A DNA stretch of 64,000 bases from Salinispira sp. (GTDB lineage Bacteria > Spirochaetota > Spirochaetia > DSM-27196 > Salinispiraceae): assembly GCA_965226555.1 (NCBI GenBank), contig CBDDDG010000021.1, positions 352,001-416,000 on the forward strand, in the 5' to 3' direction. Positions 19,130 to 61,153 of this stretch are shown here, piece by piece. The position numbers were made by a program, and so were the translations under genes. Under the pieces are notes generated by a model. The model had not been told where the DNA came from. It saw only the letters and a program-made list of their open reading frames with translations, and did no database searches. How positions within the stretch are numbered: the stretch's first letter is position 1; every line of letters begins with the position of its first letter.

Positions 19130-19158
19130 TTGACAAGTTTTCTGATCGCAATTATACT
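19130..19158 (+). promoter_or_regulatory. sigma70 promoter for the Fn3-DUF285 gene
   Basis: TTGACA-17 nt-TATACT. Confidence 0.65.
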
Positions 19159-19223
19159 GGCTTTATCATTTGAGACAGTTGCTGTGCAACGATCTCAATT
19201 ATATGACCTTGGAGGTAACATAT

Positions 19224-20828
19224 ATGAAAATTAAAGGAATAACCTTTTGTATTTTCTGCGCAATATCCATTGCGTTGATTTCTGGATGCCCAACACCAGA
19301 ACCGGAACCCGGGCCAACTGCGCCGCCTGTTATGTCTGCTCCGACTCTCACAGCGGGAAACGGACAACTTACAGCCTCATGGATTGATCCGACTACATGG
19401 AATTGGGGAGATAACAAAGCGGTCAACGCTATTACCTCGTACAATCTGCGCTATCGGGAAGTCGGCAGCGAGAGCTGGACGGAGATTAACTCCGGTATAA
19501 CCGGCACAAGCCACACCATTACCGAACTGACAAACGGCGACACCTACCACGTGCAGGTGCGCGCCATCAACGCTCAGGGCACTGGCGGCTGGTCGGCATC
19601 TGCCACAGCAACACCTATTGCGCCGCCAACTGCGCCCCCTGTCGCGCCGGGCACAATGGCTGCTCCAACCCTTGAAGTGGGGAATGGACAGCTCATTGCG
19701 ACATGGACTGCGCCGGAAAATGATGGCGGCAGCCCCATTACCGGGTATGAACTGCAATATCGCACAGATGCTGGAGCATGGACGCGCATTAGCTCCGGCA
19801 TTGCCTGCGAAAACAGCGAGGGGCAGACAGAAGTCTGTCATTTTTCCTTCTCATCGTACTCTTCCTACACAATTCACAGCATTACGGCAGACGGCGCCAA
19901 CTACCAACTACAGGTACGCGCCGTCAACGCGCAGGGCAGTGGCGAATGGTCTGCAACAGCAATGTTGCTTTTTGCAACGCAGGTTCCTGCGGGCGAGGCA
20001 GCGGTCGCAATTTTTCCGGCTGATATTGATAACCCCATTGCCCCTGAAATTGTCACTGAGCTCAGCATTTCTTTGACCGCGGTGGGGGCGAGCAATATCA
20101 TCACGGTCGGTGATGGAGACATTACGTCGGTCACCTCCGTAGCGACGCCCAATGGAGTTACCCCGCCGACTGTTGATTCGAGCAGCGGACTTATTACGCT
20201 TACGGTTACCGCAGATACAACGGCAGGAACATATGTGATATATGACAACAATGCAACCGGAACCGATGGTCTCCTCTTTGCCGAATATTTCTTTGTTACT
20301 GAGAGTCCTCAAGATAAAACTCAACTGCAAACACGGGTAACTGAGGGTATAGATACTTGGGGCAATACTGGTAATTTCAACTACATCATTACCGCTACAG
20401 TAACGGATATGTCTAGCATTTTCAATAGTAAAACCTCATTCAATGGCGATATCTCCGGCTGGGATGTCAGCGCGGTAACGAATATGTTTCAGATGTTCAA
20501 TAACGCAAGCGCATTCAATGGCGATATCTCCGCTTGGGATGTCGGTTCGGTAACGATTACAACCCAGATGTTCAATAGCGCTGCTACATTCAATACCGAT
20601 ATCTCCGGCTGGGATGTCGGCTCTTTAACGACTATGCCCTTTATGTTCAATTCTGCAATCGCATTCAATGTCGATCTTGAGGAGTGGAAGGATCATTGGA
20701 CGCTTGATGGCGATGGAAAATATACCGGAACCATAGTAAGTATGTTTGATGGTTCCGGTGTGGTGTCGAATACGGACGGGTCGGATATGAGTAAGCCTAC
20801 AGGTGTTGGTACTCCATCATGGTATTAG
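19224..20828 (+). CDS. Fn3 (x2) + DUF285/BspA-like repeat (x4) surface lipoprotein
   Basis: SD GGAGG; lipobox ISGC-PTPEPEP; Fn3 Y.VQVRA.NA.G.G.WS; FNGDISxWDV repeats; ends PSWY. Confidence 0.88.
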   Translation: MKIKGITFCIFCAISIALISGCPTPEPEPGPTAPPVMSAPTLTAGNGQLTASWIDPTTWNWGDNKAVNAITSYNLRYREVGSESWTEINSGITGTSHTITELTNGDTYHVQVRAINAQGTGGWSASATATPIAPPTAPPVAPGTMAAPTLEVGNGQLIATWTAPENDGGSPITGYELQYRTDAGAWTRISSGIACENSEGQTEVCHFSFSSYSSYTIHSITADGANYQLQVRAVNAQGSGEWSATAMLLFATQVPAGEAAVAIFPADIDNPIAPEIVTELSISLTAVGASNIITVGDGDITSVTSVATPNGVTPPTVDSSSGLITLTVTADTTAGTYVIYDNNATGTDGLLFAEYFFVTESPQDKTQLQTRVTEGIDTWGNTGNFNYIITATVTDMSSIFNSKTSFNGDISGWDVSAVTNMFQMFNNASAFNGDISAWDVGSVTITTQMFNSAATFNTDISGWDVGSLTTMPFMFNSAIAFNVDLEEWKDHWTLDGDGKYTGTIVSMFDGSGVVSNTDGSDMSKPTGVGTPSWY

Positions 20829-20871
20829 TTTCATAGCCCCCAGCGGTTATTGAAAAGTGACAAGTCAACTC

Positions 20872-20909
20872 AGGCAGGCACGGAAAAAAAATCCGTGCCT
20901 GCCTTTTTT
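20872..20909 (+). terminator. Intrinsic terminator shared by the three DUF285 genes
   Basis: aggcaggcacgga-loop-tccgtgcctgcct-ttttt. Confidence 0.85.
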
Positions 20910-21231
20910 CGATTGCTCGCCATGCGTCTGTTGCTGAGGCGGGGGGGCTGGTCGCGCTGCTCGCCATGCAGCCGGGCTGGTCGGAGGCTTGCGTCCGGCT
21001 CGCTTATGCGCGCTCAATTTTCGGGCTATATCTTACGCAGTCAGTCGGATATCGCCATAAACGCGCTATCCTGAGCGCACCCCTTCCCGTCCACTCACCC
21101 GCATTTCAGAGCCCTCCCCTCCCGTAGCCCCAAAAAAATCACACATTTTGCAAAATTCTTTCAAATTCTCTCAAAAAACATAGTCAAAAATGACTTTTTA
21201 CCCGTTATAGATATAGAGGGGAGAATTCACC

Positions 21232-21306
21232 ATGGGACCATGTCGCCATGGGAACTCCCCTATTCAGAAAGAAACGTTCAGAAAAACCTTCAGGAGGATT
21301 GTATGA
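21232..21306 (+). CDS. Putative 24-aa leader ORF coupled to the rpn start
   Basis: SD GAGGGGAG; MGPCRHGNSPIQKETFRKTFRRIV*; its TGA overlaps the ATG at 21303. Confidence 0.35.
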   Translation: MGPCRHGNSPIQKETFRKTFRRIV

Positions 21307-22379
21307 TCGATTTCAAAGAAAAACCCGCCCCCGTTCCCTACGACCAAGGATACCGCTCCCTGCTGTTCCAACCCGCAATAATGCTCCAATTTCTTCAACG
21401 CTTTGTCGGAGGCGCATGGACGAAAAAATTGCGAACCGAGGACATAACCATTGAAAACGGTACCTTTTTCATTGACCATGCGAAAACACGGATGGCCGAC
21501 ATTGTCTGCAAAATCAGAACTCGGGATCACACGGGAGATGTTGCTATCTATGTGCTCCTTGAGCATCAGTCTGGAGTGGACAAAGACATGCCCATCCGCA
21601 TGTCGGAATATACGAATCTGCTCTATAGAAACATTCACCGCTCCGGCGCAATTCCCGATGACTGCGAGTTGGTATTTCTGCCCATTGTGTTCTATAATGG
21701 CACGAGAAAATGGAAGGTGCCGGGGAATGTCAGGGAGCAGAATACGCGGGAATTCCCGCAGTATCTTGCTCCTTTTCCCTACGATCTTATTAGCGAGAGC
21801 GATTATTCTGCGGAGCAGCTGCAGCAGCGGGGAAGAATGTTTGCGGCTGTTATGTACCTTGATCTGTACTCGAAAAATCTGCTGAATACGGATTGGGACA
21901 TTCAGAAGGTGGAGAAAGCGATAGCAGAAATGCTGAATGAGGAATCGCTGGAGCTGATAAAGGAATTTATCGGCGTGGTAGATTCGATGTTCGGAATTGT
22001 TATAGATTTAGATACGTTAATGAATCAATTAGAAAGAACAAAAGAACCGAGAGGTAAGGAGGTAGCGAAAATGTTCAGAATGAATGCGGAAACATTCAGA
22101 GCTCACATTGCGGAGATGGGTCGGCAGGAAGGACTACAGACAGGACTGCGAACAGGTCGACAGGAAGGCCGTGAAGAAGGTCGGCAGGAAGGATTGCAGA
22201 CAGGTCGTGAAGAAGGACTTCAGACAGGACTGCAGAAAGGACTACAGACAGGTCGGCAAGAAGGCATTCGAGAAACGGCCCGCAGTATGTTTTTGGAAGG
22301 GTTGTCGACCGAGGCTGTTCAGAGAATTACCGGGCTGAGCGATGAGGAAATGCGCACATTGCGAAACGGGTCGCATTAA
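21303..22379 (+). CDS. Rpn/YhgA-like PD-(D/E)XK nuclease (Transposase_31 family), intact
   Basis: YDQGYRSLLF, RMADIV, YVLLEHQS..DKDMPIRM..Y, PIVFYNG..KW; C-terminal G.QEG 4-aa repeats; SD AGGAGG. Confidence 0.9.
   Translation: MIDFKEKPAPVPYDQGYRSLLFQPAIMLQFLQRFVGGAWTKKLRTEDITIENGTFFIDHAKTRMADIVCKIRTRDHTGDVAIYVLLEHQSGVDKDMPIRMSEYTNLLYRNIHRSGAIPDDCELVFLPIVFYNGTRKWKVPGNVREQNTREFPQYLAPFPYDLISESDYSAEQLQQRGRMFAAVMYLDLYSKNLLNTDWDIQKVEKAIAEMLNEESLELIKEFIGVVDSMFGIVIDLDTLMNQLERTKEPRGKEVAKMFRMNAETFRAHIAEMGRQEGLQTGLRTGRQEGREEGRQEGLQTGREEGLQTGLQKGLQTGRQEGIRETARSMFLEGLSTEAVQRITGLSDEEMRTLRNGSH
22071..22379 (+). CDS. Putative internally initiated small Rpn protein (RpnS-type antitoxin)
   Basis: In-frame AAGGAGG-tagcgaaa-ATG just before the 4-aa repeats. 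Confidence 0.65.
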   Translation: MFRMNAETFRAHIAEMGRQEGLQTGLRTGRQEGREEGRQEGLQTGREEGLQTGLQKGLQTGRQEGIRETARSMFLEGLSTEAVQRITGLSDEEMRTLRNGSH

Positions 22380-22399
22380 GTTGGAACCGCTCTGTCTGC

Positions 22400-22428
22400 T
22401 TGACATGATGTCCCAATGATGCTAAGCT
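22400..22428 (+). promoter_or_regulatory. sigma70 promoter for rplU
   Basis: TTGACA-17 nt-TAAGCT with TG extension. Confidence 0.6.
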
Positions 22429-22482
22429 CGGAAATTATCAACGAAATGTGTTGAAAGCCAAATTTTATCAGGAATTACATTC

Positions 22483-22794
22483 ATGTATGCATTAATAGAT
22501 ATCAGAGGTAAGCAATATCGGGCGGAAAAGGATGCTCTCATTCAGGTCGATAGATTGCATGAGGAAGCAGGGGCGCAAATTACGTTCAATTCTGTTCTTC
22601 TTCTTAATTCCGGGAAGGATGTGAAGGTCGGACTTCCATATGTTAAGGGAGCAAAGGTTACGGCGGAAGTTGTTGAACACCTGCGGGGGAAAAAAATTAC
22701 GGTATTTAAGTATCGCCGCAGAAAAGATTCCATGAGCAAAAATGGCCACCGTTCACATTATTCCATTCTGAAAATAACCGATATCACCATGTGA
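22483..22794 (+). CDS. rplU: 50S ribosomal protein L21
   Basis: MYALI..GKQY, RGKKITVFKY, GHR. Confidence 0.96.
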   Translation: MYALIDIRGKQYRAEKDALIQVDRLHEEAGAQITFNSVLLLNSGKDVKVGLPYVKGAKVTAEVVEHLRGKKITVFKYRRRKDSMSKNGHRSHYSILKITDITM

Positions 22795-22853
22795 ATTGCG
22801 CTATATGTGCGCCATTGTCAGCAGCCCTGAGTTTGCTGCCGCGGATCTTACCT

Positions 22854-23192
22854 ATGATACACTGTGTAATTACGGAATCGTCCGGTGTTCTTCGAAGGCT
22901 TGAATCGAAGGGGCATGCTCATACGGACAGTCGGCAGGGAGCGGTGAGTATTTCCTGCGCTGCCGTCAGCGCGCTTATCAGGAGTCTTGGAATGGCTCTT
23001 GAAAAGCGAAGTGATGTAGAAGTTCGTGTTCATACCCTTTCCCCGGGAAATGTATGTTTTCACATTGTTTCATCAGCGCCGGAATCGCAGGGCTGGCTTC
23101 GGGGTCTTACGGATATGTTTATTCAGGGAATGGAAGGAGTGAAAAACGATTTTCCCGATCAAATTTCCTTTGAGAGAAAAAAATCGATATAA
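22854..23192 (+). CDS. prp: Ribosomal-processing cysteine protease Prp (YsxB family)
   Basis: GHA...SCAAVSA motif; follows rplU. Confidence 0.8.
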   Translation: MIHCVITESSGVLRRLESKGHAHTDSRQGAVSISCAAVSALIRSLGMALEKRSDVEVRVHTLSPGNVCFHIVSSAPESQGWLRGLTDMFIQGMEGVKNDFPDQISFERKKSI

Positions 23193-23198
23193 CCTAAA

Positions 23199-23570
23199 AT
23201 GAGCAACTTCCGTTTTGAAAAAATTACATCCCGTCTTCAGCACCTTCTCAATGAAATCATTGTAAATAATGAGATCAAAGATCATCGGGTGAATAGCCTC
23301 TTAAGCGTCAGCGCCGTTGAGCTTTCCCGCGATGGTTCGCATGCAAAAATTAAGGTAAGCGGGTATCTTGCGAAGAATGACTTAGATGAGGGCATAGTTG
23401 GTCTCAATAGCGCTGCGGGGTATATTCAGAAAATTGTCGCATCGCGTCTTCATACGCGTCGTACCCCAAAACTCACCTTCATAAAAGACGAAGCGCTCAT
23501 TCATGGCATGGAAATATCACAGCGCCTAAAAAAATTATCCGATGATCCTCCCAGCGCTCTACCTCATTAA
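23199..23570 (+). CDS. rbfA: Ribosome-binding factor A
   Basis: IKDHRV, VELSRDGSHAKI, LNSAAGYIQ, RRTPKLTF. Confidence 0.92.
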   Translation: MSNFRFEKITSRLQHLLNEIIVNNEIKDHRVNSLLSVSAVELSRDGSHAKIKVSGYLAKNDLDEGIVGLNSAAGYIQKIVASRLHTRRTPKLTFIKDEALIHGMEISQRLKKLSDDPPSALPH

Positions 23571-24468: not shown

Positions 24469-24486
24469 ATTGATTATCATCATAAT
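24458..24486 (+). promoter_or_regulatory. sigma70 promoter for rpsO
   Basis: TTGACA-17 nt-CATAAT. Confidence 0.55.
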
Positions 24487-24545
24487 TATTCAGAAATTTT
24501 TATGCGGTAAGATAATTACCGGACGAAAAAAAGGAGTTACAATAC

Positions 24546-24815
24546 ATGCCGCTTTTGAAAACACGGGTGGAGAAAATTATAAAAGAATTTGGAAGTTCTG
24601 AACAAGACTCTGGTAGAACAGAGGTGCAGATTGCTCTTTTACATGAGAGAATCCATGAACTGAATGAGCATCTTCAAACCCATAAAAAAGACCACGCATC
24701 CCGTCGCGGACTGCTTAAGCTTGTCGGACAGCGGCGCAGGCTACTCCGCTATTTAAAGCGGAAAAATCTTGAAAGTTATCGTGCTATTCTTGCAAAATTA
24801 GGTCTGCGAAAATAG
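24546..24815 (+). CDS. rpsO: 30S ribosomal protein S15
   Basis: [34 protein letters not shown]. Confidence 0.97.
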
Positions 24816-24818
24816 TAC

Positions 24819-25017
24819 AAAGTTTTGCAGAAATAAAATTTTCTGCAAATTGAGAGAATGCTGAGAATAGAAAAAGCATTCCAACCCGGACGTATGGGCA
24901 AGCGGGAGGCGCAGCCTCCGACCAGCCCTCTGAAACCTGCGCGTTACGCAAAAGTTTCATGTAGAAAATTTTGCATTGGAAAATTGTGCGTGCACAATTT
25001 CCAGTAGCAAAAGTTTC
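24819..25017. repeat. Composite palindromic element between rpsO and pnp
   Basis: Hairpin + gagaatgct body + GC module + long nested hairpin; bracketed by the atagtaca/tgtactat inverted repeat. Confidence 0.85.
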
Positions 25018-25039
25018 ATGTACTATCTTAGGAGAACCA

Positions 25040-34567: not shown

Positions 34568-34843
34568 TTAATGCGGTCCGTTCCGCACTGTCCGCATTTC
34601 CTCATCGCTCAGCCCGGTAACATCCTGAATGTCATGGGCTGAAAATCCTTTGGAAAACATACTGCGGGCCGTTTCTCGAATGCCTCTCGCCATTCCTTTT
34701 GCAAGACCTTTCTGCATTCCCTGCTCAAGACCTTCAACACGACCTTTCAGAATGCCTTTCTCCATTCCCTGCTCAAGACCCTCAATCCGGCCCTTCGCAA
34801 TACCTTCCCTGACGAAGGCGTTGGTAATATTATATGTCCGCAT
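34568..34843 (-). CDS. Intact RpnS-type small protein (MRTYNITNAF...)
   Basis: SD AGGAG-aaaacagt-ATG; ten xxxG repeats; 91 aa. Confidence 0.7.
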   Translation of the reverse strand: MRTYNITNAFVREGIAKGRIEGLEQGMEKGILKGRVEGLEQGMQKGLAKGMARGIRETARSMFSKGFSAHDIQDVTGLSDEEMRTVRNGPH

Positions 34844-35330
34844 ACTGTTTTCTCCTACTGAAACTTTTGCATTGGAAAATTGTGCAGAGCACAATTTCCA
34901 GTAGCAAAAGTTTCAAATTTGGCAGGCCTCGTTGCGCTTGGCATTCTCTCATTTTGTAGAAAGTTTTGCCTGCGGCAAAACTTTGTCTAGGATATAGTTT
35001 CCTGTCAATTTTCTCAAACTGTTCATACAGTTTTGGATCCAGATCTTTTATACCGAAAATTGTGCTCCGCACAATTTTCTAATCTGGATTCTCTCATCTC
35101 TATTCGTGATTCTCTCAAGATATAGAAAGTTTTGCCTGTGGCAAAACTTTGGTATAACCCAGCACACTCTCTGCCAGATCAGTAAAGTCTTGTGATGACA
35201 AACCGTTTAGGAGCTGCGCAATCTCTTTCAGCCCCTCAGCATTCATTTTATTGAAAATTGTGCGGAGCAAAATTTTCAGTAATGAACAGGGCTTTCCGAT
35301 CGGGGTCTGAGAGGAAGGGGGCGCTGAGGC
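34568..35330 (-). pseudogene. Rpn type-B copy 3: 5'-truncated, internal deletion, two element insertions
   Basis: Matches 38434-39471 in pieces (SAPFLSDPDRKALFI; MNAEGLKEIAQ...); inserts at 35052-35153 and 34857-34986. Confidence 0.85.
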
Positions 35331-35347
35331 AATGCGCGGCTGTGCTG

Positions 35348-35587
35348 TTACTTTTTACCGTTTTCCCTGCTATTTTCACTACCGTTTTTCCGGGCGTTTT
35401 TCTGAAATGCTCGAATTTCATCCTTGCTGAGCTTAGTGTACTTACGAATACGGTCTATCGACAGACCATCCATAAGCATATTGAGCGCATGATCACGCTG
35501 AGCCTGAGCTTGCCCTTGCTCAAGTCCTTGCTCAAGCCCCTGCTCAACACCTGCCCGCCATGGGTCATCTAAAAGATCTACCAACAT
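35348..35587 (-). CDS. RpnS-type small protein of the type-A gene (MLVDLLDDPW...)
   Basis: In-frame GAGGAGG-taaaacgt-ATG followed by EQG repeats. Confidence 0.6.
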   Translation of the reverse strand: MLVDLLDDPWRAGVEQGLEQGLEQGQAQAQRDHALNMLMDGLSIDRIRKYTKLSKDEIRAFQKNARKNGSENSRENGKK

Positions 35588-36568
35588 ACGTTTTACCTCC
35601 TCAGGATTGTCCTGAAATAATTTCTTTGTTTCATCCCTAGTTATCTTACCAGAAAATCTCTTGAGTATCCATCCACAGAAAATTGTGCTCTGCACAATTT
35701 TCCAATGAGGATTCTCTCATCTCTATTCTTGATTCTCTCAAGGTATAGAAAGTTTTGCCACAGGCAAAACTTTGTCATAAAATCGCTCTTTCTTTTCGGG
35801 ATTCTCATCCTGTATTATATCTTTGAGTATGGCGATTGTTTCTTCTGTGTACTCTTCTATTGTTCCAAGATTTTCACAGAAAATTGTGCTCTGCACAATT
35901 TTTCAATAAGGATTCTCTTATCTATATTCTTGATTCTCTCAAGATATAGAAAGTTTTGCTACTGGAAATTGTGCTTGCACAATTTTCCAAGGCAAAACTT
36001 TGGTGATGTACATTATTGCCGAAATAACCCCTCCGACAGCCTTCAGTTCCTTGTTGCTGAAATTACTAATGTTGATCTGATAATAGGGAGATATCCGATT
36101 TCCTGAGTGAAAATATGATTGAAAATCGAGCGTGCGCGGATTCGAATTCGTCATTGACGCGCTGCGCCTAGTGTATATCACAAGGGTGATTATCAGGTAG
36201 TCGGTTTTCTCATCCCCCGATGAGGAAAGGTCTTCGGATAGGTGATGGGCGTATGTATATATTCTCCCCGGCATGTCGCTATCCACTGTCGACTGAAACT
36301 CAATGATGAAATACACATCAAGTGGTTTCAATTTCAGCATGTTATCGTAAAAATTGCATGTGGTTTTGTAAATGATATCGGAGACTGAACGTTTGGGGTC
36401 ATCTTTGGGGATATGCTCTGAGTCAATACGCTCTATACTCCCGGGAACAATGCTCCGCGCGAGGCCTTTGTTGAAGTAGGAGTATATGAAATCCTGGAAT
36501 ATCTGAGCATTCCTGAAAGCATATTTCCAACTTTTGTCGTGTACCATTCCTATATATTTTCCGCTCAT
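35348..36568 (-). pseudogene. Rpn type-A gene interrupted by two element insertions
   Basis: HDKSWKYAF, SDIIY, YFIIEFQST.D.DMP.R; removing 35876-36004 and 35675-35776 gives a continuous frame ...AIMYI|ENLGTIEE...KERFY|GWILKRF... Confidence 0.85.
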
Positions 36569-36871: not shown

Positions 36872-37147
36872 TTAATGCGATCCGTTCCGCACTGTCCGCA
36901 TTTCCTCATCGCTCAGCCCGGTAACATCCTGAATGTCATGGGCTGAAAATCCTTTGGAAAACATACTGCGGGCCGTTTCTCGAATGCCTCTCGCCATTCC
37001 TTTTGCAAGACCTTTCTGCATTCCCTGCTCAAGACCTTCAACACGACCTTTCAGAATGCCTTTCTCCATTCCCTGCTCAAGACCCTCAATCCGGCCCTTC
37101 GCAATGCCTTCCCTGACGAAGGCGTTGGTAATATTATATGTCCGCAT
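36872..37147 (-). CDS. Intact RpnS-type small protein
   Basis: SD AGGAGGAG-aaaacagt-ATG; near-identical to 34568-34843. Confidence 0.7.
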   Translation of the reverse strand: MRTYNITNAFVREGIAKGRIEGLEQGMEKGILKGRVEGLEQGMQKGLAKGMARGIRETARSMFSKGFSAHDIQDVTGLSDEEMRTVRNGSH

Positions 37148-38033
37148 ACTGTTTTCTCCTCCTGAAACTTTTGCATTGGAAAATTGTGCAGAGCACAATT
37201 TCCAGTAGCAAAAGTTTCAAATTTGGCATGCATCGTTGCGCTTGGCATTCTCCCATTTTGTAGAAAGTTTTGCCTGTGGCAAAACTTTGTCTAGGATATA
37301 GTTTCCTGTTAATTTTCTCAAACTGTTCATACAGTTTTGGATCCAGATCTTTTAGATAACCCAGCACGCTCTCTGCCAGATCAGTAAAGTCTTGTGAAGA
37401 CAAACCGTTCAGGAGCTGCGCAATCTCTTTCAGCCCCTCAATATTCATTTCATTATCTCGCATTATATACCACAATGCAGTCGATGTATATCGTTTTCCA
37501 TCGAAACGCCATGCCAACTGCTCCTTTTTCATTCTACAAAGATCACGCACAATGTACGACACTTTTACCCTGACATCTACCGTGCCTTCAGTCATAGATT
37601 CGGAAGCAGCATTTCCATGTGAACTGTAAAATGTGAGTGGGAGGTTCCATTCCTTTTTTCCATGGTAAAGCAGTAATATATAGATAGCATCCTTTTCATT
37701 GTACACATTGCTGTTTCTGAGGGCATATTGATAGTCATCGATCTGTGTGAGAACGTGTTTGTGCAGGTAGCTTTTGTGTTCAATAATAAAAAAGGCCTTC
37801 CGGTCGGGGTCTGACAGGAAGGGTGCGCTGACAACGAGAGCGCAGTGAAGGTTCTTTTTTCCTGCAATGTAGCTGGGGGTTTCAATGCGGATTTTGTCCA
37901 TGTCCAGCTTGGCAAGCGTTGTATCCTCACAGAACAGGCGCAGCAGGTCGGGAATCATACGGGGGGTTCTGTAGTAGGCGATCTTGAAGGCTAGGTCGTG
38001 GATATGGTATTTGCTGTGGGATGATTTTTTCAT
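36872..38033 (-). pseudogene. Rpn type-B copy 2: catalytic Asp to Ala plus a 130-bp insertion before RpnS
   Basis: NLHCALVV versus NLHCDLVV in the paralogues; insert at 37161-37290. Confidence 0.85.
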
Positions 38034-38433: not shown

Positions 38434-39471
38434 TTAATGCGATCCGTTCCGCACTGTCCGCATTTCCTCATCGCTCAGCCCGGTAACATCCTGAATGTCA
38501 TGGGCTGAAAATCCTTTGGAAAACATACTGCGGGCCGTTTCTCGAATGCCTCTCGCCATTCCTTTTGCAAGACCTTTCTGCATTCCCTGCTCAAGACCCT
38601 CAACCCGACCTTTCAGAATGCCTTTCTCCATTCCTTTCAGAATGCCCTTCTCCATTCCCTCAATTCGGCCCTTCGCAATGCCTTCCCTGACGAAGGCGTT
38701 GGTTATGTTATATGTCCGCATACTGTTTTCTCCTCTAGGGTACAGTTTCCTGTTAATTTTCTCAAACTGCTCATACAGTCCCAAGTCCTTCAGGTAACCC
38801 AGCACACTCTCTGCTAGATCAGTAAAGTCTTGTGAAGACAAACCGTTCAGGAGCTGCGCAATCTCTTTCAGCCCCTCAGCGTTCATTTCATTATCTCTCA
38901 TCATATACCACAACGCAGTCGATGTATATCGTTTTCCATCGAAACGCCATGCCAACTGCTTCTTTGTCATTCGCCTCAGATCGCGCACGATGTACGACAC
39001 TTTCACCTTGACATCTACCGTGCCTTCGGTAAGGGATTCGGAAGCAGCATTTCCATGAGAACTGTAAAATGTGAGTGGGAGGTTCCATTCCTTTTTTCCA
39101 TGGTAGAGCAGCAGTATATAGATAGCATCCCTTTCATTGTACACATTGCTGGTTCTGAGGGCATGCTGATAGTCATCAATCTGTGTGAGAGCATGTTTGT
39201 GCTGGTAGCTTTTATGTTCAATAATAAAAAGGGCCTTCCGGTCGGGGTCTGACAGGAAGGGAGCGCTGACAACGAGATCGCAGTGAAGGTTCTTTTTTCC
39301 CGCAATGTAGCTGGGATTTTCAATGCGGATTTTGTCCATGTCCAGCTTGGCAAGCGTCGTATCCGTACAGAACAGCCGCAGCAGGTCGGGAATCATACGG
39401 GGGGTTCTGTAGTAGGCGAGCTTGAAGGCTATGTCGTGGATATGGCCTGTGCTCTGGGATGATTTTTTCAT
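38434..39471 (-). CDS. Rpn type-B nuclease, intact (internal RpnS start at 38721)
   Basis: SD AGGAGG; HIHDIAFK, HCDLVV, FIIEHKS, LLLYHG..W, C-terminal xxxG repeats. Confidence 0.88.
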   Translation of the reverse strand: MKKSSQSTGHIHDIAFKLAYYRTPRMIPDLLRLFCTDTTLAKLDMDKIRIENPSYIAGKKNLHCDLVVSAPFLSDPDRKALFIIEHKSYQHKHALTQIDDYQHALRTSNVYNERDAIYILLLYHGKKEWNLPLTFYSSHGNAASESLTEGTVDVKVKVSYIVRDLRRMTKKQLAWRFDGKRYTSTALWYMMRDNEMNAEGLKEIAQLLNGLSSQDFTDLAESVLGYLKDLGLYEQFEKINRKLYPRGENSMRTYNITNAFVREGIAKGRIEGMEKGILKGMEKGILKGRVEGLEQGMQKGLAKGMARGIRETARSMFSKGFSAHDIQDVTGLSDEEMRTVRNGSH

Positions 39472-39576
39472 AAATATTCCTCCTACATCTATAACGGGTA
39501 AAAAGTCATTTTTAACTATGTATGTGGAAAGAATTTTGCAAAATGTGTGAATTTTTTTCGGGGGATGGGGGAATGC

Positions 39577-39702
39577 GGGGACAATGCTCCGCGCGAGGTC
39601 TTTATTGAAGTAGGAGTATGTGAAGTTTCTGAATATCTGAGCATTCCTGAAAGCATATTTCCAACTTTTGTCGTGTACCATTCCTATATATTTTCCGCTC
39701 AT
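39577..39702 (-). pseudogene. 5' stub of an Rpn type-A gene, in frame with the downstream leader and type-B gene
   Basis: MSGKYIGMVHDKSWKYAFRNAQIF...ARSIVP is nearly identical to the start at 36568. Confidence 0.8.
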
Positions 39703-39952
39703 ACCATATAGACGGGTAAAATATGAATGGTGTATGACAAAATGAGAAAGTTTTTCAAAAAGTTTTATTATTTTGAGATATTACAAAGTTTTGTTACTGA
39801 AAATTGTGCTCTGCACAATTTTCAAATGAGGATTCCCTCAAGGTATAGAAACTTTCTATAAAATGCGAGAATGCTAAGCACAAAGACAGCATTCCAAATG
39901 AGATATTGACCTGAGCCCCCGTCTCAGCAACAGGCGCATAGGCGAGCTATCG

Positions 39953-39986
39953 AAAAAAGGCAGGCACGGATTGCCCCGCGCCTGCC
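39953..39986 (-). terminator. Terminator after DUF285 gene 2
   Basis: Reverse complement: ggcaggcgcgg-ggcaat-ccgtgcctgcc-tttttt. Confidence 0.8.
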
Positions 39987-40016: not shown

Positions 40017-42314
40017 CTACTGGTTATACCATGTTGGAAAGGCTACATCGCCTGTTTGGCCGCGGCCCACCTTGGAATTCCGAAACATATTGGTGTCGGT
40101 TCCGGTAAATGTGCTGGGGGTATCCGTGTCCATATCCTTATCTTCGAGTGTCAAATGATCCTTCCACTCCTCAAGATCCTGATTGAATGCGCTTGCTCCA
40201 TCGAACATTTGAGTCATATTCGGTGCCGCAGCAATTGTCCAGCCGGAAATATCCTGATTGAAACTGGTTGCTCCATCGAACATATAGGACATATTCGTTA
40301 CCTTACTGACATCACCCCATCCCGAGATATCGCCATTGAAACTGGTTGCTTCAGCGAACATATAGGACATATTCGTTACCGAGCTGACATCCCAGCCAGA
40401 GATATTCTGATTGAATGCGCTTGCTTGAGCGAACATACCGAACATACTCGTTACCGAACTGACATCCCAGTTTGAGATATCTTGATCGAATGCGCTTACT
40501 TCCTGGAACATCTGAGTCATAAATGTTACCGAACTGACATTCCACTTCGAGATATCGCCATTGAATGCGTCTGCGTTATAGAACATACTGTTCATACTCG
40601 TTACCGAACTGACATCCCAGCGTGAGATGTCGCCATTGAATTCGCCTGGGTTATGGAAAATAGTGGTCATATCCGTTACTGCCGTGGTAACAATGTAGTT
40701 GAGATCGGCAGTATTGCCCCAATTACTTATTCCCGCAGCTACCGCTGCGTCCAGTTCATCGTTACCGCCATCGGTATTAGCAGCGCCCGCGCTGCCATCG
40801 CCATCAGCAGGTCTCACGGTAACATAAAACTTTTCGGTAAGCCGTGTATTCTCATCGGTTCCGTCTATGACAGATACATTGTATGTTCCTGCCGTTGTAC
40901 TTGCGGCAACCGTAATAACTCCGGTACGTGCGTCAACTGTCGGCAGGGTAACGGTAACCCCTGAGGGCGGGGAAGTAACCCCAGCCACAGTAACGCTTGG
41001 ATTCTCCGCATTGGCAGCGGCGTCATCAATGTCAGCCGAAAGAATGACGGATGTTGTTGATGTACCAAAGGGAACCTGTGCCGCAAGCGGCAGCAGTGTT
41101 CTCGTTGCGGAGGCAGACCAGCCGCCAGTGCCCAGCGCGTTAACGGCGCGCACCTGCACATTGTAGGAGGTGCCGTCGTTCGTCAGGCTCGGGATGGTGT
41201 AGCTCGTAGCACTGATAGGGTCGGTGACCAGCGTCCAGTTAGTTCCGCTGTCTGAACTATACTGCACATCATATGAGGTAATGGGGCTGCCGCCGTTGTT
41301 GGGCGCTGTCCATATCGCGGTGAGCTGGGTGTCTCCAACTGTGAGCCTGGGAGCATTCGGCATGGCAGGAGGCCCAATAGGGGTTGCGGTGCCGGTCGCT
41401 GGGTTGCCATTGCCCTCTGTATTGACAGCGTAGACCCGCGCCTCATACTCGGTGCCGTTTGTCAGGTTGGGGATGGTGAGGGTGTAGGTGTCGGCATCGG
41501 CGGTTGCAATGACAGGTTCCCACGCGCTTACTCCGACTACGCGATGTTGCAGTTCATAGCGAATAATGTCGCTGTCGCCAGTATCGGTCGGCGCAGCCCA
41601 TGTTGCGGTAATTGTCGTATCGTCCGCTGCGAGCGTGAACGCAGTCGGCGCCAAGGAAACGGTAATAGGGGTTTCTGTGGAAGATTCCGACCAGTTTCCC
41701 GCACCATGCGCATTGACCGCGCGCAGCCGCACATCGTAGGGGGTGCCGTTTGTCAGCCCGGTAATGGTGGAGCGTGAGGTCGGAGGAGTAATAATGGCGG
41801 TATCTGTATCGTCCGCTGGCCAGTCTGCGCTGCTTTGTTTGTGCTACACATGGTACGCGGTAATTTCGCTATCGCCGGTTTCTTCCGGCGGAGTCCAGTT
41901 AACCGTTAGTTGCTTATTCCCCGCTTCAAGGATTGGGGCAGCCATGGTGCCCGGCACGGCTGGTTCAGGTACATCTGAATTCTGCCGGGTATAGACAGTG
42001 CCATCCAATGTTAAGGTATCTCCATCAATGGTATACTCTACCGTTGCCCCATTACGGTTTTCCGCTCCTTCTCCTATACAATTACTGAACGTAATTGAGT
42101 TTCCGTTATCCGTGTAATCACAAATAACCTCCAAAAACACATCTATGTACGTTGTCGCGGTGAATTCTATGGTATGAAACTCATTATCCGCGGTCCACAC
42201 GCCTATTAGGGGAGATGTATCCATGGGCACTGGTTCCGGTTCCGTCATTGGTTCCGGTTCCGGCAGTGGACATCCGGCAAGTAATGCGATGAGAACCACG
42301 CTCATTATAATCAA
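40017..42314 (-). pseudogene. Fn3 (x3) + DUF285 (x7) lipoprotein with one in-frame amber stop
   Basis: ORFs 41844-42314 and 40017-41732 share a frame; TAG at 41844-41846 lies in YHV*HK, then Fn3 sequence continues ([19 protein letters not shown]); lipobox LAGC; ends PTWYNQ. Confidence 0.85.
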
Positions 42315-53949: not shown

Positions 53950-53965
53950 TGTTTTATTCTCCTCG

Positions 53966-55919: not shown

Positions 55920-57736
55920 ACGTCAGCTTCCGATAGCTTGAAACGTTGAGTTACTAACTGAACGAGATTCTTTGTCCTTGAGTCAATTTGATCATGGCTC
56001 CAGCCTGTAGCAACGGCCAAGTCCTTATTAAGCGTGAGTCCGTTTTTGTAGCCGACAGGAAGACCTTGTTTATCAGTATGATCCCTCTTATCCTCAAAGC
56101 TCCTATTACCAAGTTTACTATTGAAAGCGGAAATCGTCAGGTTGCCCAATTTGTGAACATGTGTCTCTTGTATTTCCTTCGCTCTTTTCTCATCGCCATC
56201 GGCGATCATGGTTATCCACGGCATTGGGATATTTTCTCCTTTCGGAAAAATATGTTCAATTGTCCATACGAATTTCTTATTTTCACCGCGCTGCCAAAGA
56301 TCAACCCAACTTTCTTTTGTCATGGACTCTTCGGCCAAAGCGCAGAGAATAAACCGGGTTACCCCAACATTTTCTTCATAAATCGGCCCCCTTAGCTTGC
56401 GTTGGAAGTAATCGTCCGTAACAGAGACAGCCAGTAATTCTTGCTTAATTGATTCCGTAATCGCATGTGCGCGCAACCCACTGATCTTGTTAATTACTGT
56501 TATAAACAGTCGGGGAAGATCTCGGGTTGAAGGGGTATCGGTCAAATTACGATAAACGAAGAATCGGACAAGTAATTTGACTATTGATGATAGGTGAGAA
56601 TTCTCAAGTTTGAGCTCATTCTTTCGTACGAGTAAATACAAAATGAGCAAATATGATGGGGTGCCCTGAATCCGTTCTAAATCCTTTAGCGGTTTCTTAA
56701 GATCATTCTCAAGAGCATTGAGGGCTTCATCCTCGTTTCGTGAAAGTATCAGCGAATACAGTCGTCCAGCGTCACTGAGCTTCTGTAAACAATCTTTCGC
56801 GTTATGGTCAATGAGCTTTTCATAAATTTGAATTAGGTTGGATCGGATGGCGACCTGTACCTGAGGGATCGCTTTAAGTTGATTCCTGAAGGCGTTGTAG
56901 TACTGACGAAAAAAACGTTCCTGAATAGTATAGTCATCGCCTAGGTAATTCAGGAGACGCTTCCAATTCTCAAAATTGTGATCTACCGCGCCTTCGCCTG
57001 ATGGTTCAATGGATTCCAGACGGGCCAATAGCTTGTTCTTGATCAGATCAACGGCGGTAAGCGGAATCCCCCGATCGTTTAAAGTCTCGAACAGGATATA
57101 CGCGTCAGCGTGGCTTGCCACCTCAATTTTGACCATGCACGCGTGGCTGACTTTTTCTATGAATGCCATGATCGTATGTAGCAGATTGTTTTCTTCATTG
57201 CTTATTCGATTAATGCGATCTTGAAAATATCGATAAGCGCGAAATATCTGACGGTTACCAGCGTGATGGGGGTAGGGCGCATCCCCAATAATTCCGGCAT
57301 CGGCGAGAACAGCGCGGTAATCATCGAAATTATTACCCTGATTCTGCGGAAGCAGACGAATTTTATCGCCCCCTTTCTTGAGAACCAACTTGTGCTTCAA
57401 ATTGATCAGCTCAGCGCCCTGTTCATCATCCAAATCATTTTTATAAGATTTTAGAATCTGGTAAACAGCGGACAGAAGTAGTGAGAGCGTTGTTAGGCGT
57501 TGTTGTCCGTCAACGAGCTCAAGCTTCTGAATAGAAAGCGCATCGGTCGATTGATTGATGCAGATAATTGAGCCAAGGAAATAGCCCTGCTCGTTTTCAA
57601 GCACATCATCAAAAAGTTTTTTCCACTGATTTTTGCCCCATGAGTATGCACGCTGGTAGCGAGGAATGGCGTAAACCACTCCCGCTTCAATATCGAAAAG
57701 CTGTGAGACTGGGTAGTTATTTACAGATTGAATCAT
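55916..57736 (-). CDS. DUF262 + DUF1524 (GmrSD/SspE-like) NTPase-HNH nuclease
   Basis: IPRYQRAYSW, DGQQRLTT, FETLNDRG, IEHIFP...LGNLT...N. Confidence 0.9.
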   Translation of the reverse strand: MIQSVNNYPVSQLFDIEAGVVYAIPRYQRAYSWGKNQWKKLFDDVLENEQGYFLGSIICINQSTDALSIQKLELVDGQQRLTTLSLLLSAVYQILKSYKNDLDDEQGAELINLKHKLVLKKGGDKIRLLPQNQGNNFDDYRAVLADAGIIGDAPYPHHAGNRQIFRAYRYFQDRINRISNEENNLLHTIMAFIEKVSHACMVKIEVASHADAYILFETLNDRGIPLTAVDLIKNKLLARLESIEPSGEGAVDHNFENWKRLLNYLGDDYTIQERFFRQYYNAFRNQLKAIPQVQVAIRSNLIQIYEKLIDHNAKDCLQKLSDAGRLYSLILSRNEDEALNALENDLKKPLKDLERIQGTPSYLLILYLLVRKNELKLENSHLSSIVKLLVRFFVYRNLTDTPSTRDLPRLFITVINKISGLRAHAITESIKQELLAVSVTDDYFQRKLRGPIYEENVGVTRFILCALAEESMTKESWVDLWQRGENKKFVWTIEHIFPKGENIPMPWITMIADGDEKRAKEIQETHVHKLGNLTISAFNSKLGNRSFEDKRDHTDKQGLPVGYKNGLTLNKDLAVATGWSHDQIDSRTKNLVQLVTQRFKLSEADV

Positions 57737-57953
57737 CCATCATCTCCAAAATATCAATTCTTGCCCCCAATGAGCATAAATATGATACTATGAATTGCTT
57801 AAAACATCAACGGAATAGTAATTCTGCTCGGTGATATAAACTTTTGCTTGACACAAAGTTTCTCAACTGTTGTATACAACAATCTCGGAAATAATAGTGA
57901 AAGCCGTCAGAATTTTTCTGAGGCAAAACTATTAGCCACAGGAGGCAAAATAT

Positions 57954-59363
57954 ATGAGAACTAGGTCATACTCAGGAACAATCCTTTGCATTTTCTGCTC
58001 AATACTTATTGCATTGATTGCCGGATGTCCAATGCCGGAACCAGAACCAATGCCGGAACCAGAACTAACCGCGCCGGGTACCATGGCTGCTCCAACCCTC
58101 ACAGCAGGGAACGGGCAAGTAACTGTTGAATGGGTTGCGCCGACCAGCGATGGCGGCAGCGCAATTACCGCGTATGAGCTGCAATATCGATCGGCCGGAA
58201 GTGAATCTGATTGGAAGTTAATCTATTCCGGTATTGATGGCACAGATCACACCATCACCCATGTGGCAAATAACATCAGCTACGAGGTACAGGTTCGTGC
58301 TGTCAACGCTGTTGGCAATGGTCCATGGTCCGCAACAGCAACATCAATGTTGCCGTTTGCAACACAGGTTCCCGCGGGGACAGCGGCGCTCGTACTTCTT
58401 TCGGCTGATATTGATACCCGTATTGCCGCTGAGAACCTCGCCGTTTTTTTGACCACGGTAGAGCCGGGCACATACGCGGTCGATGAATCAGATGTCATTA
58501 CGATAACCCCCGCAACTGTGCCCGAAAATGTCACCCCGCCGACAGTTGATGTAAGTACCGGAATTATTACCGTTACAGCAAATACAACGGCAGGAACATA
58601 TCTGGTATACGGCAGTAAAACAGGAACCGGAGACATACTGTTTGCCGAATATTTCTATGTTACTGTGAGTCCTCAAGATAGTGATGGTAATAATGATGGC
58701 GGTAATGGTGAACTGAAAATGGCGGTAACTGAAGGGATATCTGTTTTGGGCACAGAAGTCATGGTTGATACTGACACCACCTATACCTATGCCGATCTCA
58801 ACTACATTGTTACCACGGCAATAAGGGATATGTCTGAGGTGTTCAAGAATAACAGCACATTCAATGGCGATATCTCACTCTGGGATGTCAGTTCAGTAAC
58901 GGATATAAACAATATGTTCAATAGCGCAGTCGCATTCAATGGTGATATCTCGGGCTGGGATGTCAGTAAAGTAACAAATATGAGTGGATTGCTCGGTTCC
59001 GCCAACGCATTCAATGGCGATATCTCTGTTTGGGATACTGGCACGGTAACGAATATGAGCAATATGTTCACTTTTGCAATCTCATTCAATGGCGATATCT
59101 CACTCTGGGATGTCAGTTCGGTAATGAATATGAGCTCCATGTTCGGTTTAGCAAGCTCATTCAATGGCGATATCTCCGGTTGGGATGTCAGCTCGGTAGC
59201 GAATATGGAATATATGTTTAATATAGCAAGCGCATTCAATCAAGATCTTGAGGAGTGGAAGGATCATTGGACGCTTGATGGTAATGGCAAATATACCGGA
59301 TTTAAAACAGGTATGTTTGTGAGTTCCGGCGTGACAGGTAGTCTGGTGCCGTCATGGTATTAG
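57954..59363 (+). CDS. Fn3 (x1) + DUF285 (x6) surface lipoprotein
   Basis: SD AGGAGG; lipobox IAGC-PMPEPEP; FNGDIS.WDV repeats; ends PSWY. Confidence 0.88.
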   Translation: MRTRSYSGTILCIFCSILIALIAGCPMPEPEPMPEPELTAPGTMAAPTLTAGNGQVTVEWVAPTSDGGSAITAYELQYRSAGSESDWKLIYSGIDGTDHTITHVANNISYEVQVRAVNAVGNGPWSATATSMLPFATQVPAGTAALVLLSADIDTRIAAENLAVFLTTVEPGTYAVDESDVITITPATVPENVTPPTVDVSTGIITVTANTTAGTYLVYGSKTGTGDILFAEYFYVTVSPQDSDGNNDGGNGELKMAVTEGISVLGTEVMVDTDTTYTYADLNYIVTTAIRDMSEVFKNNSTFNGDISLWDVSSVTDINNMFNSAVAFNGDISGWDVSKVTNMSGLLGSANAFNGDISVWDTGTVTNMSNMFTFAISFNGDISLWDVSSVMNMSSMFGLASSFNGDISGWDVSSVANMEYMFNIASAFNQDLEEWKDHWTLDGNGKYTGFKTGMFVSSGVTGSLVPSWY

Positions 59364-59413
59364 TTTCATAGCCCATAGCCCGCAGCGGCTAATGAAACGT
59401 TGCAATTCAACTC

Positions 59414-59489
59414 AGGCAGGCGCGGATTTTCCCCCGGATGCTTGGGCGAGCAGGCGTGCAACGCCGACCAGCCCGTGCCTGCCTTTTTT
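59414..59489 (+). terminator. Shared terminator with a GC module inserted in its loop
   Basis: aggcaggcgcgg...[ccggatgcttgggcgagcaggcgtgcaacgccgaccagc]...ccgtgcctgcc-tttttt. Confidence 0.75.
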
Positions 59490-59778
59490 CGATAGAGACG
59501 GCTGATCGGCGTACGCTTGGGCTGGTCAGAGGCCTGCGCCTTCTGCTCGCCCAAGCATCCATCAGGAATGCTTTCTTTGTGCTGAGCATTCTCCTATTTC
59601 ATAGAAAGTTTCTATACCTTGAGAGAATCAAGAATATGGATGAGAGAATCCTCATTTGAAAATTGTGCAGAGCAAAATTTTCAATAGCAAAACTCTGTAA
59701 TATCCCAAAATAATAAAACTTTTTCAAAAACTTTCTCATTTTGTCATACACCATTCATATTTTACCCGTCTATATAGT

Positions 59779-59895
59779 ATGAGCAAAAAATATATTGGTA
59801 TGGTACACGCTGAAAATATGTTTTCGGGAATGTTCAGATATTCCGGCACTTCATATATTCATACTTCAACAAAGGCCTCGCGGGGAGCATGGAGA
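59779..59895 (+). pseudogene. Degenerate 5' stub of Rpn type A
   Basis: MSKKYIGMVH; DNA resembles the start at 36568 (tacttcaacaaaggcctcgcg) but is frameshifted. Confidence 0.65.
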
Positions 59896-60024
59896 GCATC
59901 AACACAGAGCATACCATCCCCCATTCCCGACTCCCCGAAAAAAATTCACAAATTTTGCAAAATTCTTTCCAAATACATAGTCAAGAATGACTTTTTACCC
60001 GTCACAGATGTAGGAGGAATGTTT

Positions 60025-61153
60025 ATGAAAAAATCATCCCACAGCACAGGACACATCCACGACATAGCCTTCAAGATCGCCTACTACAGAACCCCCCGTA
60101 TGATTCCCGACCTGCTGCGGTTGTTCTGTGAGGATACAACGCTTACCAAGCTGGACATGGACAAAATCCGCATTGAAAACCCCAGTTACATTGCGGGAAA
60201 AAAGAACCTTCACTGCGATCTCGTTGTCAGCGCCCCCTTTCTGTCAGACCCCGACCGGAAAGCTCTATTCATTATTGAGCATAAAAGCTACCAGCACAAA
60301 CATGCTCACACACAGATTGATGACTATCAGCATGCCCTCAGAAACAGCAATGTGTACAATGAAAATGATGCTATCTATATACTTCTGTTTTACCATGGAA
60401 AAAAGGAATGGAACCTCCAGCGCGAATTTTACAGTTCGCATGGAAATGCTGCTTCCGAATCCCTTACCGAAGGCACGGTAGATGTCAGGGTGAAAGTGTC
60501 GTACATTGTGCGCGATCTTTGTAGAATGACAAAGAAACAGTTGGCATGGCGTTTCGATGGAAAACGATATACATCGACTGCGTTGTGGTATATAATGCGA
60601 GATAATAACAAAGTTTTTCCTTTAGGAAAAACTTTCTATACCGTGAGAGAATCAAGAGTATAGATGAGAGAATCCTCATTTGAAAATTGTGCAGAGCACA
60701 ATTTTCAGTGAAATGGACACTGAGGGGCTGAAAGAGATTGCGCAGCTCCTGAACGGTCTGTCATCACAAGACTTTACTGATCTGGCAGAGAGTGTGCTAG
60801 GCTATCTGAAAGATTTGGGACTGTATGAGCAGTTTGAGAAAATTGACAGGGAACTGTTCCCTGGAGGAGAAAACAGTATGCGGACATATAATATTACAAA
60901 CGCCTTCGTCAGAGAAGGAATGGAGAAAGGTATGGAAAAGGGTATTCTGAAAGGAATGGAGAGGGGCATTCTGAAAGGACGGGTTGAGGGAATGGAGAAA
61001 GGTATTCTGAAAGGTCGCGCTGAGGGGCATATTGAGGAGCGGAGAAAAAACGCCCGCAGTATGTTTTCGGAAGGCTTGTCAACAGAGGCTGTTCAGAGGA
61101 TTACCGGGCTGAGCGATGAGGAAATGCGGACAGTGCGGAACGGATCGCATTAA
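60025..61153 (+). pseudogene. Rpn type-B copy 4 interrupted by a 103-bp insertion
   Basis: Removing 60607-60709 restores RDN|EMD as in the intact paralogue. Confidence 0.88.
60878..61153 (+). CDS. Intact RpnS-type small protein
   Basis: GGAGGAG-aaaacagt-ATG; xxxG repeats. Confidence 0.7.
   Translation: MRTYNITNAFVREGMEKGMEKGILKGMERGILKGRVEGMEKGILKGRAEGHIEERRKNARSMFSEGLSTEAVQRITGLSDEEMRTVRNGSH

Follow-up and report, generated by a model that had tools for sequence, protein, structure and literature searches.

Polarised linkage of Fn3–DUF285 surface lipoprotein genes to rpn toxin–antitoxin genes, and short-patch mosaicism, in a Salinispira genome

Introduction

Rpn/YhgA proteins are gene-within-gene toxin–antitoxin systems in which RpnL carries the internal antitoxin RpnS (PMC10400941; PMC5350276, both drawn on in part), and PARCEL genes are dispersed within genomes, with a reported association with mobile elements (PMC2996958, likewise in part). 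In this study, a stretch of 64,000 nucleotides from Salinispira sp. (GCA_965226555.1, contig CBDDDG010000021.1; C21:352001-416000, hereafter the window) was analyzed, in which lipoprotein genes with fibronectin type III (Fn3) domains and PARCEL/DUF285 repeats are followed by rpn genes. The genome (G000) comprises 2.98 Mb in 26 contigs, is 93.5% complete and 6.67% contaminated, and is the sole member of its genus. It comes from an uncultured bacterium that its ribosomal protein hits place among the spirochaetes; an L21 search for named close relatives gave identities of 51-55% at best.

Like the described systems, the rpn genes encode a Transposase_31 domain, EHQS/EHKS motifs, and conserved acidic motifs, have an internal ribosome site with ATG and a helix of four-residue repeats, occur in tandem arrays and also as stand-alone RpnS copies, and end variably, with no inverted repeats and apparently no target duplication. 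They differ in scale (about 150 copies in seven subfamilies, against 26 in the high-copy example of the consulted part of PMC10400941), in their polarised linkage to surface lipoproteins, in antitoxin tails swapped between nuclease subfamilies, and in a hairpin element that selectively disrupts the nuclease halves. The lipoproteins share 25-residue tandem repeats, a lipoprotein signal, and intragenomic dispersal with known PARCEL/DUF285 proteins (PMC2996958; TIGR02167); unlike these, about 100 Fn3-linked copies occur in one spirochaete, 85 of 109 loci are full length, and half are then followed by rpn. No rpn-like partner of PARCEL genes is described in the consulted part of PMC2996958. Literature searches found no prior description of the DUF285–Rpn linkage and, in the collection covered, no paper naming both; this agrees with an earlier note on this DNA made from the sequence alone.

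Antigenic variation of spirochaetes by segmental gene conversion is known from vlsE and tprK, each with a single expression site and silent donors. In G000, short patches are likewise exchanged between paralogous surface-protein sequences, but the exchange is many-to-many among mostly intact dispersed genes, and rpn and insertion sequence (IS) copies are converted too. A single expression site fed by silent donors is made less likely by the finding that most lipoprotein copies are complete and have upstream regions of their own. REP/REPIN–RAYT systems (repetitive extragenic palindromes and their associated Y1 HUH transposase) and miniature inverted-repeat transposable elements comprise hundreds of lineage-specific palindromic copies. 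The palindromes of G000 are similar in being lineage-specific and present in hundreds, in the GC-rich units beside a nuclease gene, and in the insertion duplication of 0-1 nt; unlike REP–RAYT, no match to a Y1 transposase (PF01797) was found in G000. Unlike a diversity-generating retroelement, no reverse transcriptase (PF00078) match was found in the 93.5% complete genome. The parts are already known; what appears new is the scale on which they occur, the coupling between them, and the signature of selection.

Genome-Wide Linkage and Copy Number

DUF285 loci were counted with profiles built from genome hits, and a locus was taken as linked when a same-strand rpn gene lay within 1.5 kb downstream. 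Such a gene was found at 59 of 109 DUF285 loci, against a null mean of 5.3 and a maximum of 14 in 1000 draws, so the adjacency suspected in the earlier note far exceeds random expectation. The linkage is polarised: 59 rpn genes lay downstream on the same strand, one downstream on the opposite strand, four upstream on the same strand, and ten upstream on the opposite strand (head-to-head). The wording that a lipoprotein is always followed by rpn did not hold, since 50/109 DUF285 loci had no nearby rpn and, among the 132 rpn arrays listed, 56 lay directly behind a DUF285 gene and 76 did not. Some unlinked lipoprotein genes were parted from rpn by just an IS or another lipoprotein gene. The DUF285 genes belong to a superfamily of 172 lipoprotein genes, 73 of which had a downstream rpn compared with 31 of 1698 genes outside the 40 largest clusters; by class, the counts were 54/99 (DUF285), 5/9 (FG-GAP), 6/18 (other Fn3), 6/38 (propeller), and 2/8 (miscellaneous). 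A nine-copy coiled-coil family (cluster 9; C10:307154-307927, C14:256988-257992) often lies between lipoprotein and rpn, and 5/9 of its members are then followed by rpn.

The open reading frames (ORFs) of the lipoprotein (about 170 genes) and rpn families occupy 301 kb and 139 kb, respectively, or about 15% of the ~3-Mb genome. In 30 relatives, 0-14 DUF285 and 0-6 Transposase_31 matches were found. In a loose first-look count over 401 spirochaete genomes, G000 ranked highest for both DUF285 (218, next 81) and rpn candidates (236, next 71). Abundance by itself does not yield linkage: genome G209 has 50 DUF285 and 33 rpn matches, none of them adjacent, the nearest pair read from the tables being about 7.5 kb apart. 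One rpn subfamily of G000 has 84% identity to a protein labelled 'Salinispira sp.'. A metagenome search with the lipoprotein of locus C (below) gave 10 distant loci, with no rpn match in the two inspected; viral contigs contained no rpn relative and no hairpin element, and a PF12784 search of G000 gave no match.

We favour, with a probability of roughly 0.6, an explanation in which ragged copying multiplied an ancestral pair of adjacent lipoprotein and rpn genes, recombination through the spacers common to the copies keeps the set in flux, and selection acts on the lipoproteins and the antitoxins. The rpn toxin–antitoxin genes then likely hitchhike on a recombination-driven expansion of the surface repertoire and do not move that repertoire as a unit. 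In such a course, an ancestral lipoprotein–terminator–rpn unit, probably with an rpn of subfamily F4, would have been copied to new sites by illegitimate events with variable ends. The shared terminator, repeat, and leader DNA would serve as portable homology, through which homologous recombination could add, swap, tandem-duplicate, or delete rpn in one orientation, convert short patches among paralogues, and rearrange the chromosome. Selection would retain the lipoproteins and internal antitoxins, leaving about half of the nuclease halves to decay; the antitoxins would be needed while any of the 75 intact nucleases is made.

Assembly Quality and Strain Mixture

Near-duplicate segments with 1.8% divergence in 4/4 flanks indicate that G000 likely includes a second, rearranged strain, whose breakpoints often fall at lipoprotein, rpn, or IS islets. 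Multi-kb duplicates about 98% identical, including the dnaA/gyrB region, were observed in contigs C4, C6, C7, C13, and C17 and in parts of C1, C12, and C16, in different gene contexts. It is hardly credible that strain mixing during assembly made the repeats and mosaics, for which the 6.67% contamination and the near-duplicates could be cited. Contigs of run X2 were identical to the window over its unique stretches (18935-19459 and 22340-24994 among them), and the matched unique parts cover the 5' end of lipoprotein A and the rpn–rplU junction. The X2 and X3 runs possibly represent the source sample and give no independent support. A relative, with long contigs about 1.5-3% divergent, was present in two cave-metagenome-labelled runs of a second study, and paralogous contigs piled up on the window genes in 4/4 runs, by the hundreds in these two. 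The linkage also survived (55/98) the removal of fragments shorter than 900 nt and of the suspect contigs C4, C6, C7, C13, and C17.

Organization of the Three Window Loci

The window contains three such loci, A (plus strand), B (minus strand), and C (plus strand), with the following features.

19224..20828, + strand: locus A lipoprotein, lipobox GC, two Fn3, linker, PARCEL/DUF285 repeats, PSWY end, 534 aa
20872..20909, + strand: locus A hairpin resembling an intrinsic terminator and common to the loci, putatively terminating
20915..21205, + strand: locus A GC-rich repeat units and shared rpn leader
21303..22379, + strand: locus A intact rpn, subfamily F1, 358 aa
22071..22379, + strand: locus A predicted internal antitoxin RpnS, by analogy with PMC10400941 (consulted in part), AGGAGG site and ATG, 102 aa, 4-aa repeats
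40017..42314, − strand: locus B lipoprotein pseudogene, lacking the usual start and interrupted by an in-frame TAG at 41844-41846, three Fn3 and PARCEL, PTWYNQ end
39955..39985, − strand: locus B terminator-like hairpin
39494..39729, − strand: locus B leader 2, 5' remnant of an F4 rpn (39574-39702), and leader 1
38434..39471, − strand: locus B intact rpn (B1), subfamily F0, 345 aa, predicted RpnS at 38434-38721
36872..38033, − strand: locus B second F0 rpn, split just 5' of the RpnS ribosome site by a hairpin element (~37160-37290), RpnS frame 36872-37147 open
35348..36568, − strand: locus B F4 rpn, interrupted by hairpin elements at two places (35876-36004, ~35675-35777), RpnS frame 35348-35587 open
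34568..35334, − strand: locus B 3' remnant of an F0 rpn, two hairpin elements (35052-35153, ~34857-34988), RpnS frame 34568-34843 open
57954..59363, + strand: locus C lipoprotein, lipobox GC, one Fn3, PARCEL, PSWY end, 469 aa
59414..59487, + strand: locus C terminator-like hairpin with GC-rich units in the loop
59752..60002, + strand: locus C leader 2, F4 5' remnant (59779-59957), and leader 1
60025..61153, + strand: locus C F0 rpn, interrupted at 60607-60709 by a hairpin element of 103 nt, RpnS frame 60878-61153 open

The common order and orientation reported earlier were thus recovered: each locus consists of an Fn3–DUF285 lipoprotein with a P(S/T)WY end, a homologous 3' flank, a hairpin, GC-rich repeat units, a shared rpn leader, and one or more Transposase_31 genes on the same strand. 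The shared terminator-like hairpin has the form GGCAGGC…GTGCCTGCC followed by a U-tract, with z values of -6.6, -4.3, and -2.5 at the three loci. Only two rpn genes of the window are intact (21303-22379 and 38434-39471). The lipoproteins of the loci are 51-60% identical to each other; rpn A (F1) and rpn B1 (F0), of different subfamilies, share 32% amino acid identity, and rpn B1 is 93% identical to the rpn of locus C. These divergences exclude an origin of the three loci from one old segmental duplication.

The placement of every locus at a break of housekeeping synteny was borne out in part. In all four relatives in which rbfA was matched, infB is its neighbour; the distance from rplU–prp to obgE is about 1 kb in five of five relatives, and the HEAT–greA spacing is 78 bp in relative G001 and about 2 kb in G004 and G006. 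These breaks hold; locus C, which lies between GmrSD and HsdS genes, does not fit. In the window, rplU and prp (22483-23192) immediately follow rpn A within the infB–rbfA junction, severed from rpmA-obgE (C10:457529-458919). Locus C is flanked by a GmrSD restriction gene (55916-57736) and an HsdS gene (61486-62727) without adjoining hsdM/hsdR.

Structure of the rpn Genes and Their Internal Antitoxins

The mean nucleotide identity was 91.6% in F0 (60 near-full copies) and 94.1% in F1 (43 copies). The rpn ORFs of the window exceeded the Transposase_31 (PF04754) cut-off; rpn A was also above, and rpn B1 below, the TIGR01784 cut-off. In an alignment of 40 Rpn proteins, D87 and E108 were invariant and D35 nearly so, and 69/75 intact copies had an E-H/F-Q/K-S motif, from which residues equivalent to D11/D63/E82/Q84 of RpnA (PMC5350276, consulted in part) can be inferred. 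A single-sequence fold was poor (predicted local distance difference test, pLDDT, 43.8), and an alignment-based model was used instead; it has a helix at 272-352 and two short helices (mean pLDDT 81.9). A Foldseek search with this model gave weak nuclease matches only, none at E<=0.001.

A ribosome site and ATG precede the helix of four-residue repeats in five multicopy subfamilies, giving 165 start motifs, a few of them spurious. A cognate nuclease region lies upstream of 148 of these, 75 intact and 73 broken or fragmentary. By its likeness to the RpnL/RpnS arrangement that Zhong et al. describe (PMC10400941, consulted in part), the internal RpnS is a predicted antitoxin. The predicted RpnS lengths step by four residues, tail types are common across subfamilies, and 74 distinct RpnS sequences occur among the 75 intact copies. 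An open RpnS frame is kept in 69 of the 73 broken nuclease copies.

It seems unlikely that each rpn stabilises the lipoprotein ahead of it by addiction, the loss of the locus leaving the nuclease without an antitoxin specific in repeat length. The 74 distinct RpnS and the four-residue steps would suit such specificity, which in E. coli RpnC is set by repeat number according to the consulted part of PMC10400941. Against it, 30 of 56 linked arrays have no intact nuclease, a share equal to that of other arrays (intact in 26/56 linked and 37/76 other arrays, P=0.86), and 58 of 73 intact nucleases have an RpnS of the same family and helix length elsewhere in the genome (43 also of the same tail type, four of identical sequence). 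Linked lipoproteins were not more often intact than unlinked ones (48/54 vs 37/45, P=0.39), and the linkage has repeatedly been lost. The stabilisation (addiction) proposed in the earlier note is therefore weakly supported in cis.

A 5' remnant of F4 often precedes an F0 or F1 rpn, and at four places (C14:144717, C14:146844, C14:203829, C9:7488) rpn is joined directly to a 3' coding remnant of DUF285; three of the four joints share one junction and then continue into differing repeat variants. Both kinds of joint are as expected from ragged tandem duplication.

Ends of the Homology and Partner Pairing

The shared 3' flank of the lipoproteins is cut at variable points, and part of it is kept by 32/46 unlinked DUF285 genes. 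The 3' flanks of rpn also end variably. Homology thus ends raggedly on both sides, with neither the defined ends nor the terminal inverted repeats of an insertion sequence or transposon. None of the 45 longest of 96 non-IS repeats (>=96% identity) spanned a lipoprotein and an rpn gene. Partners are paired at random: the nearest paralogue by lipoprotein 3' end had the same rpn subfamily in 18/56 cases (16.1 expected, P=0.35), and similarity of the 3' end correlated weakly with that of the spacer (rho 0.14). On a quick tree of 96 rows, the state of being linked or unlinked changed 25 times, 11 of the changes being forced by well-supported branches. The GC-rich units near the arrays ran along the rpn strand in 168 cases and against it in 32, and stood upstream of 38/56 linked arrays, thereby supplying homology with a fixed orientation.

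One empty site was found for a lipoprotein (C13:14202-14281), where 79 bp stand instead of the gene and target duplication is absent. On C16 and C22, its two flanks now adjoin different DUF285 genes, which implies a crossover between lipoprotein genes. For locus A, no empty site was detected in the contigs of the runs examined. The comparison of empty sites by which the earlier note hoped to define cassette ends has accordingly yielded this single replacement.

An autonomous mobile cassette with defined ends, in which Rpn acts as the transposase, would account for the many sites reached in one order and orientation. This reading is largely refuted and very improbable: the ends are ragged, no recent duplicate of the whole unit was present among the repeats inspected, the empty site has 79 bp replaced without duplication, dead rpn alleles are widely dispersed, viral contigs gave no match, and the consulted part of Zhong et al. 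(PMC10400941) reports no evidence of rpn transposition. Of the duplicating or mobile module suggested by the earlier note, duplication and co-expansion therefore stand; a defined mobile unit is not supported, given the ragged ends, the random partners, the lack of a long recent lipoprotein–rpn duplicate among the inspected repeats, and the lack of a target duplication at the one empty site.

Distribution of the Hairpin Element

The element that breaks the nuclease halves consists of two hairpins (100-131 nt, z -5.8 to -8.8) with AC…GT ends; some copies carry a GC-rich repeat unit. It had no match in 30 relatives. Among the copies listed, it inserts with a 0-1 nt duplication at recurrent sites, and F0, F1, and F3 each have an insertion just upstream of the RpnS ribosome site. 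Copies in the window are located at 60607-60709, 34857-36004, and ~24815-24990. Of 386 clusters, 292 were intergenic, 58 were in nuclease halves, 36 were in other ORFs, and none were in RpnS, lipoprotein, or IS DNA, corresponding to 6.9 (intergenic), 5.0 (nuclease half), 0 (RpnS), and 0 (lipoprotein) per 10 kb. A recheck free of ORF bias gave 0/156 RpnS regions with the element (nine tail-less motifs set aside) and no hit in lipoprotein coding DNA; the sole element at a lipoprotein locus lay upstream of the coding region. The element is thus excluded from RpnS and lipoprotein coding DNA, which indicates that selection likely keeps both. Joints without the element in run contigs may derive from paralogues and do not demonstrate excision.

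Short-Patch Recombination

Linkage disequilibrium (r2) among rpn copies was computed without within-codon pairs and without contigs shorter than 50 kb. The values for F0/F1 were 0.16/0.24 at distances below 10 nt, 0.06/0.09 at 10-25 nt, and 0.04/0.03 above 100 nt, linkage decaying within ~25 nt; three simulations without recombination showed r2 flat with distance. All four gametes occurred in 10/10 pairs of five unique insertion alleles of F0. For the IS481-like copies (window 17749-18963; ~18-20 copies, 98.5% identical), r2 fell from 0.92 to 0.14 with distance in 18 copies, so these also undergo gene conversion. Tiling of DUF285 genes gave about 38 exact tracts with a median of 28 nt from about 21 donor paralogues, the tiling having no simulated null. 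The propeller and ankyrin families are likewise mosaic. The donor number was equal for linked and unlinked lipoproteins (P=0.68), and an effect of rpn in cis on lipoprotein mosaicism, the diversifying role that the earlier note had considered, was rejected on donor number.

Allelic lipoproteins diverged by 12.8, 12.1, and 9.8%, compared with 1.8% in 4/4 flanks, so that alleles of the surface repertoire diverge 5-7 times faster than their surroundings. All 39 of the allelic rpn differences were found in other paralogues (third-base control, 8/78), as were 149/185 differences of a linked lipoprotein allele pair and 82/217 and 5/131 of two unlinked pairs.

A recombination engine acting in trans is possible, if doubtful: leaky nicking by many intact nucleases might prime short template switches, diversifying and dispersing both lipoproteins and rpn. 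In this form, which we regard as equally tentative, 75 intact, antitoxin-damped Rpn proteins would nick at a tolerated rate, remix ~170 lipoproteins, spread rpn, and perhaps move the hairpin element. The very short tracts and the lack of a reverse transcriptase or Y1 transposase match speak for it, as does the coincidence in one genome of the highest loose rpn and DUF285 counts. Nicks made by RpnA yield priming sites for polymerase (Kingston et al., PMC5350276), and RpnL was suggested to initiate rpn duplications (Zhong et al., PMC10400941), as stated in the consulted parts of these papers. On the other side, recA is present in G000 and could in principle suffice, every nuclease has a predicted inhibitor of its own, there is no cis effect on donor number, and the recombination effect in E. 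coli, in the consulted part of PMC5350276, required overexpression and gave large replacements. The present data do not separate Rpn from RecA as the cause. If true, such a diversity generator would mark the first case of Rpn proteins with a natural role in recombination; at stake is whether Rpn serves as a phage-defence toxin–antitoxin only or as a natural promoter of recombination as well.

Selection on Lipoproteins and Nucleases

The DUF285 loci carry a lipobox and tandem 25-aa repeats, locus B being a pseudogene. The ratio of nonsynonymous to synonymous substitutions (dN/dS) in allelic lipoprotein pairs was 0.34-0.70, and positive selection (dN/dS >1) was not found in these pairs. Allelic change in the single pair inspected was concentrated in the repeats and ends. 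Anti-phage islets, in which an abortive nuclease and a variable surface protein acting as receptor or decoy are co-selected as a package, would suit this concentration, as well as the purifying selection on intact nucleases, the position of locus C between GmrSD and HsdS genes, and the defence of RpnP2 against T-even phages (PMC10400941, consulted in part). We nevertheless judge such coupling improbable, given that a terminator-like hairpin parts lipoprotein from rpn, partners are random, dN/dS does not exceed 1, and G209 has many copies of both families without linkage.

Several observations weigh against ragged amplification followed by shared-spacer recombination. The initial copying step was not observed, and just a single empty site came to light. 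The linked state shows slight clustering on the tree (25 changes against 31.3 after shuffling, with 5/500 shuffles as low), and 31 islets contain rpn but no lipoprotein, so rpn can spread alone. The proportion of exact sequence shared with paralogues was higher in linked than in unlinked lipoproteins (0.77 vs 0.66, P=1e-4), and 135/217 and 126/131 differences in the two unlinked allele pairs have no donor in the assembly, which itself mixes two strains. The 58 insertions in nuclease halves derive from ~15-20 independent sites, the copies not being independent. In the F0 and F1 analysis, element-free intact nuclease halves had a ratio of nonsynonymous to synonymous polymorphism (pN/pS) of 0.27 and 0.14, indicating purifying selection, so many intact nucleases are not neutral passengers.

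The genome gives population-genetic support for selection on the internal antitoxin with the toxin half free to decay, beyond the E. coli and C. difficile genes of PMC10400941 (consulted in part). The 74 distinct antitoxin variants in five subfamilies are a resource for mapping specificity, and G000, which tops 401 spirochaetes in loose counts of both families, offers natural tests. It is unusual, even if the more ordinary explanation holds, for two coupled, remixing families to make up about 15% of a bacterial genome.

Additional Observations

A second expanded lipoprotein family (window 4953-6254; 38 copies) has short repeats rich in Gly and Tyr, and its propeller-like C-terminus finishes near AYD…RPP; it is mosaic and rarely followed by rpn (6/38). 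In the family relative G004 (L110 6481-10968, L111 2142-16052), four nearly identical rpn genes are scattered, in opposite orientation, through an array of repeated ORFs whose N-termini agree and whose C-termini vary; the array also includes small partner genes and seems to resemble polymorphic-toxin cassettes. At window positions 15373-16975, infB has an in-frame extension of ~500 residues encoded by an 18-nt Ala/Lys/Thr-rich tandem repeat, for a total of 1342 aa.

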